From Methylobacter sp. (GTDB lineage Bacteria > Pseudomonadota > Gammaproteobacteria > Methylococcales > Methylomonadaceae): a stretch of DNA of 15,387 bases. The DNA lies in the NCBI GenBank assembly GCA_036561065.1, contig DATBQC010000966.1, positions 1 through 15,387 on the forward strand, written 5' to 3'. A program made the position numbers and the translations under genes. A model generated the notes under the pieces. That model saw nothing but the letters and a program-made list of their open reading frames with translations. It was not told the DNA's origin and ran no database searches. Below, piece after piece: positions 7,129 to 10,068 of this stretch. The first letter of the stretch is position 1. Every line of letters begins with the position of its first letter.

Positions 7129-7156
7129 CCAGCGCGTCTTAAAATGGACGCGCTGG
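7129..7156 (+). promoter_or_regulatory. GC-rich 10-bp stem hairpin, CCAGCGCGTC-TTAAAATG-GACGCGCTGG, 30 nt after the MVP stop. Its loop contains the ATG of the downstream peptidase gene. It is a candidate terminator, attenuator or translational-control structure.
   Basis: Read directly: the reverse complement of CCAGCGCGTC is GACGCGCTGG, and ATG 7144-7146 forms the 3' end of the loop. Confidence 0.45.
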
Positions 7157-7599
7157 ATCCTTTCCCATGGATTGATCATATCCAGCAGCCTCCTGGTTCT
7201 TCACTCTGCGCTCACGCTTGCCTTGCCATGATTCTCGGCATCAGCTTGGATGAGGCGTGCACGCTAATGGGGCATCGACGCAAGACGCTTACGCGTGAAT
7301 TAGTGAAGGCTTTAGGGCAGAACGTTCTTGGGCCTTCACTCATTTTTATTTCAACCGAGCATCCTATTCCAGATACTGTGGTTCTAAAAGTAAATTGGTA
7401 TACCGGCAATAAGAAACGACGCGGTCATTTTGTTCTCAAAATCGGAGAAAATCTTCATGATCCGATGTTGCAATTTGTTGTGGACTTCCATCAATGGATT
7501 GCCGCAGCAACCAAAGAAGGAATGCGGATAACTTCTTTTCTTCCGGTTTCAATTACACTGCCCCGTCGCACCATCGATTTGTCGAATGGGGAGTCATAA
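7144..7599 (+). CDS. Papain-like cysteine peptidase, peptidase C39 (bacteriocin-processing) family-like.
   Basis: 'IQQPPGSSLCAHACLAMILG' matches the C39 signature Q...(D/E)CG.ACLAMIL (oxyanion Gln plus catalytic Cys). 'RGHFVLKIGENLHDP' matches the catalytic His block HYVV...I.DP. Confidence 0.75.
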   Translation: MDALDPFPWIDHIQQPPGSSLCAHACLAMILGISLDEACTLMGHRRKTLTRELVKALGQNVLGPSLIFISTEHPIPDTVVLKVNWYTGNKKRRGHFVLKIGENLHDPMLQFVVDFHQWIAAATKEGMRITSFLPVSITLPRRTIDLSNGES

Positions 7600-7700
7600 T
7601 GATCATTTTTATTTCGTTAACTATTCTCGTCGTTGTGCTTGTCGCATCACATGGGATTTTAGTTTTGGCTGATTGGTGCATTACTAAAAATAAGAAATAG
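7599..7700 (+). CDS. Small hydrophobic single-TM peptide (33 aa, MIIFISLTILVVVLVASHGILVLADWCITKNKK), translationally coupled to the peptidase gene (TAATG).
   Basis: ATG 7599 overlaps the stop of the upstream gene. GGGAG lies 5 nt upstream. A 20-residue hydrophobic core is followed by a basic tail. Confidence 0.4.
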   Translation: MIIFISLTILVVVLVASHGILVLADWCITKNKK

Positions 7701-7992
7701 TGGGCGAGAAAACAGAAACCATATGACTAAGTCAAAGAGAAAGTTCAAAAAACTGAAGTATTGCACAATGGGCGTCCCGAATTGCACGGATCATTATGAT
7801 ATAAAGGGGAAGTCGGTGCAGAAGTGAATCATGTCCAATATCTTAGTTGTGACGATCGGACTATCATCGAAAATGATTTATGTCGTCGTGGATACTCCAC
7901 TCCTGGATGGTATTTCTGGAACGAGACGGAGTTATATTGTTATGGTCCCCATAAGAATCAAGGCGAGGCCTCTTAACAAATGCAAAAATATG

Positions 7993-8009
7993 CAGATTCA
8001 TTGAATCTG
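7993..8009. promoter_or_regulatory. Perfect 8-1-8 palindrome CAGATTCA-T-TGAATCTG, about 55 nt upstream of the RuvB start in an AT-rich 360-nt intergenic region. A candidate operator.
   Basis: Read directly: the reverse complement of CAGATTCA is TGAATCTG. The longest non-coding gap in the window (7701..8062) precedes RuvB. Confidence 0.35.
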
Positions 8010-8062
8010 GCGCCATCTGCAGAAACTCTGTAAACTTCTTTGGCCAACTCGTATTCTTGGGT

Positions 8063-9031
8063 ATGGAACACGCTGCCAACCCTGCAAAGCTGACCGAGGT
8101 TGAGCTCGATCGTGCTCTCCGCCCCACTCACTTCGACGGCTTTCGCGGCCAAGAACAAGTCAAGCTGAACCTCCAAGTGGCCGTCGCTGCGGCGAAGAAG
8201 CGCGGGACTCCCCTAGATCACCTCTTGATATCAGGCCCGCCTGGCCTCGGCAAAACGACGATGGCGGCTATCGTCGCCGCGGAGCTTGGCGCCAATCTGG
8301 TCGTGGTAAATGCTCCGTCTATCAAGACCAAGGGCGAGCTTGCCTCTCTCCTCGCGAGCCTCAACGAAGGAGACATCCTCTTCCTCGACGAGATCCACAG
8401 CTTGAATCCAAAGGTCGAGGAGATCCTTTATCCCGCTACTGAGGACTATAAACTCGAGGTCGTCGCCGGCAACAAGGCAATCACTATCAAGCTCAAGCCA
8501 TTCACTCTTATCGGGGCCACGACACGCGCCGGAATGCTACAACGTCCGATGCGTGACCGCTTCGGCATCGTCGCTGAGATGAAGCCATATTCGGTCTCGG
8601 AGCTCGTGGATATCGTCCTCGACTCCTCAAGGAAGCTCGGTGTCTCCTGCTCCCGCTCTGCTGCCGACGAAATCGCCGCTCGGAGCCACGGGACGCCCCG
8701 TCTCGCCAATCGTCTACTCCGTCGTGTTCAGGATACCGTCGATGCTTATGGTCGCTCTGGTATTTTGACCGGCGAAGTCTACGAGACTTGCGAACGAATT
8801 GGCATTGATAATTTCGGTCTCGACTCCTCCACCCGCGGATACCTCCAGATTCTTTGTGATAAGGGTCAGCCGTTGGCGCTGAGCTCTGTGGTCGCCCTCA
8901 CCGGCGAGTCCAAGGACCTCGTCGAGGAAGTTATTGAACCTGTTCTTATGCGTCTCGGACTCATCGAGAAGACGCCGAAAGGTCGCGTTGTGACGGCGAA
9001 AGGTCGTCAGCACATCCAGACGGAGCATTGA
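8063..9031 (+). CDS. ruvB: RuvB-like Holliday junction branch-migration AAA+ ATPase (start at ATG 8063; TTG 8057 is an alternative).
   Basis: 'LRPTHFDGFRGQEQVK...LDHLLISGPPGLGKTTMAAIVAAELGANL...DILFLDEIHSLNPKVEEILYPATEDYKLEV...FTLIGATTRAGMLQRPMRDRFGIV...GTPRLANRLLRRVQD' is colinear with E. coli RuvB: Walker A GPPGLGKTT, Walker B/sensor DEIHRL, arginine finger RDRFGI, and TPRIANRLLRRV. Identity is roughly 45%, so it is divergent. Confidence 0.92.
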   Translation: MEHAANPAKLTEVELDRALRPTHFDGFRGQEQVKLNLQVAVAAAKKRGTPLDHLLISGPPGLGKTTMAAIVAAELGANLVVVNAPSIKTKGELASLLASLNEGDILFLDEIHSLNPKVEEILYPATEDYKLEVVAGNKAITIKLKPFTLIGATTRAGMLQRPMRDRFGIVAEMKPYSVSELVDIVLDSSRKLGVSCSRSAADEIAARSHGTPRLANRLLRRVQDTVDAYGRSGILTGEVYETCERIGIDNFGLDSSTRGYLQILCDKGQPLALSSVVALTGESKDLVEEVIEPVLMRLGLIEKTPKGRVVTAKGRQHIQTEH

Positions 9032-9067
9032 TCGTAAACACGGCCTATAATTTTCATATCGATTTAC

Positions 9068-9517
9068 ATGTCTAATCCTGAAAAAGACCTTGAGGAGAGG
9101 GTGCAAGAAATCCTCAAGCTCCATAATGGTCGGGCTTGGTATCGACACTTCAGTAGGAGTACGTCCGATCCTAACTGCCCCATCGTGACTGGATGGGTTC
9201 TCAGCAGGATGTTTCTTTCTGATGCTGAGAAAGTCCAATTGCGTGATCTGGGCTTTAGGCCGCGTGGCGGCCGATGGATGCGAGAAGACCTCCACAAGAA
9301 TCTTCGAAAGGATCGCAATCTCACGAGGGGAGAAACGGAGAAGGCTATAGATCTACTTGTTTCCCTTGTCGATGGATCAGGATGCTCTTTCTCAGGTTCT
9401 CGCGAGTTCCAGGGAGGGACATGTGCTCAAGAAAACGGAAGGGGATTGGATTGTTTCTTCTGCTCAACGAGGGCTTTCCTGCGCTCCGTTGGAGTCGATC
9501 CTGAGAGAAAAATGTAA
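9068..9517 (+). CDS. Hypothetical protein (149 aa).
   Basis: ORF on the operon strand with a 36-nt gap after RuvB. No recognisable domain. Cys-containing C-terminus ('GSGCSFSGS...CAQENGRGLDCFFCS'). Confidence 0.4.
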   Translation: MSNPEKDLEERVQEILKLHNGRAWYRHFSRSTSDPNCPIVTGWVLSRMFLSDAEKVQLRDLGFRPRGGRWMREDLHKNLRKDRNLTRGETEKAIDLLVSLVDGSGCSFSGSREFQGGTCAQENGRGLDCFFCSTRAFLRSVGVDPERKM

Positions 9518-9537
9518 TTTCCGGCGTAAATTAATAT

Positions 9538-10035
9538 ATGTTCGAGGATAGTTCCAGCACCCCACACGCTGACGTTGTTAGCGTCACATCTTTCACTATT
9601 TCGACATCGTTTGATACTCATCGAGGTGGAACGAAGCATACTCATTTCGTTTCAATGAATTTTGAAGTGCAACCACCTCATATTGGACCAGCTCGCGCCC
9701 AAGAAGAAATTGCGGTTCTAATGGTGCGAGGGAGTTTATTAGTTTCAAAGGAATGCATAAAGCAGGCCCTTGTTCGTGGCCAGATGACGGTTGATGAAGC
9801 GAATGAGCATATTGCTGAAATCGAAAGCAACCACTTGGCGCTGCTCGAGAAGGCAGAATCTAAGTTCTTTGAGGGTTTCAAAGACGTTATGGCCCGTGAA
9901 GTTGCAAACGATCGCCTAACGAAAGAGGGGGCCGTCGTTTGGATTAATTCTGTCAAATCAAGTATGATGAGTTCAGATGAGGCTATCGGAAATATACGCG
10001 CGGAAATTGAAGAAGAGCTTTCAAAGCAGACTTAA
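9538..10035 (+). CDS. Hypothetical protein (165 aa; start uncertain, internal ATGs exist).
   Basis: ORF on the operon strand. No recognisable domain. Confidence 0.35.
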   Translation: MFEDSSSTPHADVVSVTSFTISTSFDTHRGGTKHTHFVSMNFEVQPPHIGPARAQEEIAVLMVRGSLLVSKECIKQALVRGQMTVDEANEHIAEIESNHLALLEKAESKFFEGFKDVMAREVANDRLTKEGAVVWINSVKSSMMSSDEAIGNIRAEIEEELSKQT

Positions 10036-10041
10036 TTGTAA

Positions 10042-10068
10042 AGTCTGTGTTCAATATGAACACAGACT
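10042..10068 (+). promoter_or_regulatory. Perfect 11-bp stem hairpin, AGTCTGTGTTC-AATAT-GAACACAGACT, lying between cistrons. It places ATG 10056 of the next gene at the loop/stem junction.
   Basis: Read directly: the reverse complement of AGTCTGTGTTC is GAACACAGACT. It begins 7 nt after the upstream stop. No U-tract follows, so it is not a classic intrinsic terminator. Confidence 0.45.

Follow-up and report, generated by a model that had tools for sequence, protein, structure and literature searches.

The 15,387-bp contig DATBQC010000966.1, which was analysed complete and is called the window here, carries two perfect inverted repeats that lie between genes and overlap the start codon of the downstream one. 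Hairpin 1 separates the gene of an 866-aa major-vault-protein-like (MVP-like) protein from a 151-aa open reading frame (ORF) of orphan character, the ORFan. Hairpin 2 precedes the gene of a coiled-coil protein. Both look like ordinary gene-end hairpins, or in the case of hairpin 2 perhaps like a young and neutral repeat, and not like the recurrent device for sequestering start codons that the initial annotation had seen in them. The explanation favoured here, held as a whole with middling confidence, is that strong hairpins acting in the sense strand are common at gene ends in this clade, that they overlap the next AUG because the intergenic gaps are very short, and that hairpin 2 is specific to its lineage and would form in read-through RNA only. 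The features concerned are as follows.

4499-7099, plus strand: MVP-like gene (PF11978 MVP_shoulder, E 6e-30), with stop codon TGA at 7097-7099
7129-7156, plus strand: hairpin 1, CCAGCGCGTC / ttaaaatg / GACGCGCTGG, a perfect 10-bp stem with an 8-nucleotide (nt) loop
7144-7599, plus strand: 151-aa ORFan, starting 44 nt after the MVP-like gene, with its ATG in the loop of hairpin 1 and no Shine-Dalgarno (SD) sequence
7157-7164, plus strand: tail of hairpin 1, ATCCTTTC, a weak U-tract with 4 T in 8
10033-10035, plus strand: stop codon TAA of the upstream gene (9538-10035), 6 nt before hairpin 2
10037-10044, plus strand: TGTAAAGT, a putative, conserved -10-like promoter element 11 nt before ATG 10056, whose last 3 nt open the 5' arm of hairpin 2
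10042-10068, plus strand: hairpin 2, AGTCTGTGTTCA / ata / TGAACACAGACT, a perfect 12-bp stem with a 3-nt loop
10056-10883, plus strand: gene of the coiled-coil protein, which has a hypervariable N-terminus

The structural description of hairpin 1 given by the initial annotation was accurate. The stem is perfect, 8 of its 10 pairs are G/C, and the loop ends with ATG 7144-7146; RNAfold adds a U7139.G7146 closing pair. Hairpin 2 is also perfect and located as described, with its ATG at the junction of loop and stem (for codon 10056-10058, the A is in the loop and the U and G are paired), but it has 12 bp and a 3-nt loop instead of the reported 11 bp and 5 nt. Stems of about 5-14 bp with loops of 3-8 nt are typical of intrinsic terminators, and both hairpins have this form, although only 5 of the 12 pairs of hairpin 2 are G/C. 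The minimum free energy (MFE) of the RNA, whose calculation had been suggested, is -21.3 kcal/mol for hairpin 1 (z -7.1 against shuffles) and -16.4 kcal/mol for hairpin 2 (z -5.8). Counting perfect stems that reach 10 bp and enclose a loop of 3-12 nt, the window has 9; dinucleotide shuffling yields 0.11 on average, and none of 100 shuffles had more than 1, which makes the excess approximately 80-fold. The stems are thus real, stable and non-random, and they sit between cistrons as the initial annotation stated.

The assignment of hairpin 1 to the end of the MVP-like gene comes from its relatives. About 160 loci around MVP homologues were fetched and the 120 nt after each MVP stop were inspected, 128 of the loci being non-identical. 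An inverted-repeat score of at least 9 was found after the MVP stop in 57% of the 128; other long ORFs are followed by one in 7.5% of cases, and shuffles give 3%. In addition, the mean MFE of the first 100 nt was -31.4 versus -22.1 kcal/mol. Mismatches within these stems are G.T in 21 cases and A.C in 3, which indicates that the hairpin acts in the sense-strand RNA. T is about twofold over composition in the 8-nt tails in every G+C class, and in AT-rich relatives the structure is a textbook intrinsic terminator with a T-tract, followed by TATAAT-like sequences. Since the gene 3' of MVP varies among relatives, hairpin 1 belongs to MVP and not to the downstream gene. Judged by its place after the stop, it is the local version of a clade-wide post-MVP hairpin. 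Its tail, with 4 T in 8 against 1.96 expected from composition, equals the mean of post-MVP hairpins in relatives with a G+C content of 0.45-0.55. The statement that neither hairpin has a convincing U-tract consequently stands for hairpin 2 (tail ATGATTCG, 3 T in 8) and only in part for hairpin 1.

The conserved 295-aa gene of the clade is likewise followed by a hairpin, with a score of at least 11 in 9 of 14 loci and often without a T-tract. A comparable element of the window, together with hairpin 1, is placed where relatives keep conserved hairpins:

11910-11937, plus strand: 28-bp perfect palindrome with a 12-bp stem, then TTTTCTTC; terminator-like, located past the 300-aa gene and extending over the final codons of the HNH gene on the minus strand

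Gene-end hairpins in the form of full palindromes, with no unpaired centre in the DNA and stems of up to 21 bp, are common in the clade (e.g. 12613-12646 in locus L008 and approximately 11910-11955 in L172, a syntenic relative). Several have A-tracts upstream and T-tracts downstream, as bidirectional terminators do.

On this comparative basis we infer that hairpin 1 is a terminator or attenuator, or a hairpin protecting the 3' end, of the MVP transcript. It would form in the nascent RNA 29 nt beyond the stop codon, and there end or attenuate transcription, protect the mRNA, or both. As the ORFan begins 44 nt after MVP, its AUG falls in the loop, and read-through RNA would translate it poorly; this would be a by-product of the hairpin and not its purpose. 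Low ORFan expression is therefore expected, with the AUG buried in the terminator loop and no SD. The proposal that the hairpins regulate expression relative to MVP is retained to this extent: both AUGs are masked in any RNA that holds both arms and a lower expression of the ORFan is reasonable, but a dedicated start-codon switch is not indicated. The proposed resemblance to the processing sites of T7- and T4-like phages rather than to terminators is not supported, and for hairpin 1 the comparison speaks against it, the post-MVP hairpin being kept whatever gene follows.

Hairpin 2 was examined in the same manner through the homologues of the coiled-coil gene, of which 20 loci including the window were compared. 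ATG 10056 agrees with the N-terminus of the homologues. The start region is structured in the window alone (z -4.6); in the 19 relatives z ranges from -1.1 to +1.9, no more structured than shuffles. Even the closest relatives (67-70% identity) contain weak stems only; those of L169/L170 have 8 bp with 2 G.U and 5 bp, and in them the initial codons are paired with AGUC. Of the two arms of hairpin 2, the 5' one is conserved upstream sequence and the 3' one consists of codons 1-5, in the hypervariable N-terminal part of the coiled-coil gene. Among near-identical contigs, no single-nucleotide polymorphism falls within either hairpin. A 6-nt insertion as the event that lengthened hairpin 2 was considered and dropped, the window and L169 being collinear there. 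By this comparison hairpin 2 is lineage-specific, and it is possibly a young, perhaps neutral repeat.

The upstream flank of hairpin 2 holds a motif that is shared by the relatives. In 11 of the 20 loci TGTAnnnT occurs no more than 30 nt ahead of the coiled-coil start (P 6e-15), its end lying 5-7 nt from the start in seven of them and 11-12 nt in four. It recurs within 60 nt after the coiled-coil stop, before the 295-aa gene, in 17 of the 20 loci (P 1e-21). The hexamer variants include TATAAT, TATAGT, TAAAAT, TAAAGT, TAATCT and TACGGT and by eye all keep T, A ... T at the sigma70 positions -12/-11/-7. The second copy is followed 6 nt later by a short G+C-rich hairpin in the window, L169-L171 and L190, five loci in all, the loop being UUCG, GNRA or another short sequence. 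In the window these elements are:

10896-10903, plus strand: TGTAAAGT again, as the second copy, 12 nt beyond the stop of the coiled-coil gene
10909-10924, plus strand: short conserved hairpin U-GCCGG-UUCG-CCGGC-A, with a G-C stem 6 nt past the motif and GNRA loops in relatives

The plus strand of the window has ten copies of TGTAnnnT, five of which are at gene boundaries (10037, 10896, 8029, 9513 and 14404), while four of the remaining five lie in the HNH gene in antisense orientation. Taken inside the window alone, the exact 10-mer ATTGTAAAGT is not significant, and it acquired a meaning only through the relatives. TGTAnnnT is not enriched upstream of MVP, which suggests that MVP uses another promoter type. 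The promoter consensus of the jumbo phages AR9 and phiKZ was also compared and differs from it.

By its conserved positions, TGTAnnnT may be a sigma70-type -10 promoter element. Since the spacings from motif to start codon and from motif to hairpin fit, transcription is predicted to start about 7 nt past the motif, which would give mRNAs that are leaderless or have a leader of 3-6 nt, with a 5'-terminal stem-loop. In the case of the coiled-coil gene, the -10-like element at 10039-10044 would place the start at about 10051, inside the 5' arm of hairpin 2. The mRNA made from this promoter would be nearly leaderless and devoid of the 5' arm, and its AUG would be free. Because the predicted start removes the 5' arm, hairpin 2 would form only in RNA read through from upstream, which it would stop or insulate and whose AUG it would mask.

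Several observations weigh against this explanation. The 29-nt distance of hairpin 1 from the stop is at the far end of the distribution among relatives, where the stems begin a median of 13 nt from it. Neither hairpin has a canonical U-tract, and a simple terminator scan of the window listed neither of them; the tail of hairpin 1 is under the scan threshold of 5 T in 8. Hairpin 2 lies 6 nt past a stop codon, but its stem is A+U-rich and has no positional counterpart in the relatives, and it may be without any function. In the putative promoter the TG directly abuts the hexamer, there is no -35 element, and a second, ATAAT-like element follows in some relatives; TGTAnnnT could also be a signal at the RNA level rather than a promoter. 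Finally, the inverted repeats of the window with a score of at least 8 number 14, all of them perfect, which is as compatible with repeats newly arisen by mutation as with selection.

The alternative built on that last point holds that hairpin 2 and the stems inside genes arose by quasi-palindrome correction and are tolerated, without function, in unconstrained sequence. The remaining perfect repeats of the window are pertinent here:

614-647, unstranded: 34-bp perfect palindrome with a 15-bp stem, TTTGCACGAAATACGGT / ACCGTATTTCGTGCAAA, in or near a divergent gene junction where the true gene starts are uncertain
737-759: perfect stem, in or near the divergent junction
979-999: perfect stem, listed among the inverted repeats of the window
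1113-1136: perfect stem, intergenic
4997-5021, unstranded: perfect 10-bp stem within a variable segment of the MVP ORF
10677-10701, unstranded: perfect 10-bp stem within the coiled-coil ORF
12926-12952: perfect stem inside an ORF

The density of such stems in the window, 5.85 per 10 kb, is the second highest of 134 loci, for which the median is 1.34. Four stems are inside ORFs, and several of the repeats within ORFs fall in variable segments of the proteins. One arm is conserved and the other lineage-specific in hairpin 2 and also in the stem at 10677-10701, which is not found in the relatives of 67-70% identity: there the 5' arm turns NPT into EAQ and complements the conserved arm coding for DPE. 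Across the clade, 28 of 77 stems with a 4-nt loop (36%) are full palindromes compared with about 6% expected. From the all-perfect repeats, this surplus of full palindromes and the derived arm at 10677-10701, we infer that perfect stems may arise in this lineage by quasi-palindrome correction (template switching) and would survive where the sequence is unconstrained or the stem is useful. That they would be by-products without function is nevertheless doubtful. Six of ten stems are at gene boundaries though intergenic DNA makes up about 12% of the window, hairpin 1 and the palindrome at 11910-11937 sit exactly at the conserved hairpin sites of relatives, and a function is compatible with a mutational origin. 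The syntenic relative L172 lacks the palindrome at 614-647, for which a role as an operator or as a bidirectional element is conceivable.

A combined account is conceivable but also doubtful. In it the lineage would actively make and keep perfect repeats by quasi-palindrome correction or template switching, which would yield regulatory hairpins as well as rewritten coding sequence; hairpin 2 would be a gate in read-through RNA that masks the AUG and blocks transcripts from upstream, while the nearly leaderless mRNA from its own TGTAAAGT promoter would escape.

Under translational control, the purpose of both hairpins would be to sequester the downstream AUG, and translation would require the stem to be melted by coupling to the upstream ribosome or by a factor acting in trans. 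Both AUGs, at 7144 and 10056, do lie within stable stems and neither is preceded by an SD. With the upstream stop only 6 nt away from hairpin 2, the base of that stem could be opened by a ribosome that terminates there, and the weak stems of L169/L170 also involve the first codons. A third, imperfect hairpin (2417-2447; -14.5 kcal/mol) encloses ATG 2436, 22 nt past the stop of the sigma-factor gene. Strongly structured start regions are nonetheless confined to 2 of the 17 in the window (7144 and 10056, with z of -4.9 and -5.1); of the other 15, that at 2436 reaches -2.0 and the remaining 14 stay at or above -1.4. The pairing that a translational operator would conserve is missing from the 19 relatives of the coiled-coil gene, and the recurrent start-codon architecture of the initial annotation is not supported. 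The MVP stop, 29 nt from hairpin 1, is beyond the reach at which a terminating ribosome would melt the stem, hairpin 1 tracks MVP instead of the gene whose AUG it covers, and the main coiled-coil mRNA would be without the 5' arm if the TGTAAAGT promoter is real. The same annotation had reasoned that its proposal would fall if such stems were no more frequent at start codons than elsewhere. In 105 non-redundant loci, of which 17% of the sequence is intergenic under a crude gene model, 53% of the perfect stems are wholly intergenic, 24% are interior to genes, and 7% straddle a start, the same share as straddles a stop. Translational control is thus improbable as the purpose of the two hairpins, and the gene-end explanation is preferred to it.

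The repeats might instead be DNA palindromes bound by a dimeric protein, hairpin 2 being for instance an operator laid over the -10 element, the transcription start and the ATG. The dyad symmetry is perfect, many stems are full palindromes, and hairpin 2 spans the predicted promoter with a core formed by an inverted pair of GTTCA, a word that is repeated in the leader of the next gene. This is very unlikely, however. The window holds no further copies of the hairpin half-sites beyond chance, as a repeated operator or a REP/MITE-like repeat family would, and its perfect stems share no sequence; the palindrome of hairpin 2 is not conserved in relatives, and the asymmetry between G.T and A.C in the post-MVP class points to RNA. 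Hardly credible at all are RNase III sites of the T7 R1.1 type cutting a polycistronic RNA between cistrons, as first suggested: in spite of the intercistronic place in a phage context, the missing U-tract and a weak 6-bp lower stem (2 G.U, across a 2-nt bulge) that could extend hairpin 2 to about 18 bp, the stems have 10-12 bp, half the approximately 20 bp of canonical substrates, hairpin 1 has no coaxial lower stem in a 96-nt fold, a conserved internal-loop architecture is lacking, the pattern does not recur at most gene junctions, neither hairpin has a match in Rfam, and nothing else points to RNase III.

Among known systems, the closest analogue of hairpin 1 would be a partial terminator after a major structural gene. 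The T-phi terminator of phage T7 is a partial intrinsic terminator just after gene 10. Like it, hairpin 1 is strong, G+C-rich, active in the sense strand by the mismatch bias, and located tens of nt past the stop of a presumably abundant structural gene; its position is kept across relatives, and genes on the same strand continue beyond it, so that read-through is needed. Unlike T-phi, it has a weak (4/8) or absent U-tract and the AUG of the next gene in its loop. Hairpin-only ('I-shaped') terminators and 3'-stabilising stem-loops without U-tails have been described, e.g. in Actinobacteria. They share with the clade the stable gene-end stems without U-tract that are common after the MVP and 295-aa genes, but all the stems of the window are perfect, and those of the clade may either end transcription or only shield 3' ends. 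Masking of the AUG and translational coupling occur in phage RNAs such as the MS2 replicase operator and the intercistronic hairpins of T4, which include UUCG tetraloops. The AUG in a stable helix, the short gaps, the stop near hairpin 2 and the UUCG tetraloop hairpin at 10909-10924 recall them; in contrast with them, relatives do not conserve the masking helix, no protein is known to bind it, and hairpin 1 follows the upstream gene and not the downstream one. As to the origin of the repeats, quasi-palindrome correction or template-switch mutagenesis is the Ripley model, a mutational process and not a functional element. The window would agree with it in its all-perfect repeats, in the derived state of one of the arms and in the stems in unconstrained coding segments.

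The ORFan downstream of hairpin 1 is probably a real gene, because in frame it scores +0.19 bits per codon while the two other frames score -0.47 and -0.32; its codons are used in a phage-like manner. It starts at ATG 7144 if Cys22 belongs to the protein, this ATG being the sole start available between the in-frame stop at 7126 and that residue. The initial annotation had labelled it a C39 peptidase, a label for which no profile support was found, no fold search having been made: no Pfam family matches even at E<=10. No homologue was found among 5.8 billion proteins either, and no relative of the MVP locus carries the ORF. A low-confidence AlphaFold2 model (pLDDT 49) places Cys22 beside the first long helix, followed by beta strands, an arrangement that a papain-like fold would allow but that does not establish one.

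The gene content of the window and its relatives point to a huge phage. Besides the MVP-like protein, which has more than 5,700 homologues, the window encodes a sigma-70-like factor, RuvB, RuvC and an HNH/Mom-like endonuclease. The homologous loci fetched sit on contigs from IMG/VR and metagenomes, the longest of 501 kb, and by this sequence kinship the window is taken as a piece of a huge-phage genome; the assignment of the contig to a 'Methylobacter sp.' metagenome-assembled genome probably reflects an error of binning. An annotated phage collection, searched at the DNA and protein level, gave a single short match (5% of the query, 67% identity), viral contigs scanned with single proteins gave no matches, and neither did the coiled-coil alignment used as a profile against genome contigs. 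Rfam and tRNA scans of the window were empty. At most genes of the window the SD is missing and the upstream regions are A/U-rich; purine-rich upstream tracts are seen only at the longer candidate start of the sigma-factor gene (GTG 1196), the MVP gene and the 300-aa gene.

Gene order also varies around these elements. The neighbourhoods of MVP genes differ among relatives in a cassette-like manner. In the syntenic L172, the segment 6902-9394, compared with 4499-7700 of the window, has a Peptidase_M23 gene between a DUF3307 gene and RuvB, where the window carries MVP and the ORFan, a 33-aa ORF, and some 360 nt (7701-8062) that appear to be non-coding. The HNH/homing-endonuclease gene (11906-13669, minus strand; G+C 0.35), with a Mom/GNAT-like C-terminal part, stands between the 300-aa gene and RuvC. 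It is probably a mobile insertion, because the latter two genes adjoin in L172, with no HNH gene between them.

The coiled-coil protein and the adjacent 300-aa protein (10970-11872), as well as their homologues, have a common C-terminal motif, (S/N)Y(D/E)DLL plus 0-2 residues, which may be a shared interaction tail. The leader of the 295-aa gene has a clade-wide layout, seen at 10884-10969 in the window, 10892-10988 in L172, approximately 3335-3444 in L185 and 3299-3403 in L190: TGTAnnnT, in many loci a G+C-rich hairpin (mostly with a GNRA or UUCG loop), 2-6 tandem GTTCAA(A) units, an SD and finally the ATG. Tandem units of this kind are confined to this leader and number six (CCGTTCAA) in L185. 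The layout recalls the autoregulatory operator of T4 gene 32; a single-stranded-DNA-binding protein like T4 gp32 was considered for the 295-aa protein, and sequence support for it was found neither in the PDB nor in Pfam profile searches.

The excess of perfect repeats, the TGTAnnnT motif and the conserved leader of the 295-aa gene are the more interesting side findings of this analysis. TGTAnnnT is a candidate promoter motif with apparently leaderless or short-leader mRNAs. The two hairpins also call for caution: when a hairpin encloses a start codon, this can be incidental to genome compaction or to mutation that generates hairpins, and not regulation. If the favoured explanation is correct, strong sense-strand hairpins, often without U-tract, would mark gene ends and provide an annotation rule for the transcription units of this clade of huge phages, which is large and uncultivated. 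The MVP-like gene would then be a self-contained unit of gene plus terminator that moves between genomic contexts, as fits an abundant structural or accessory protein.

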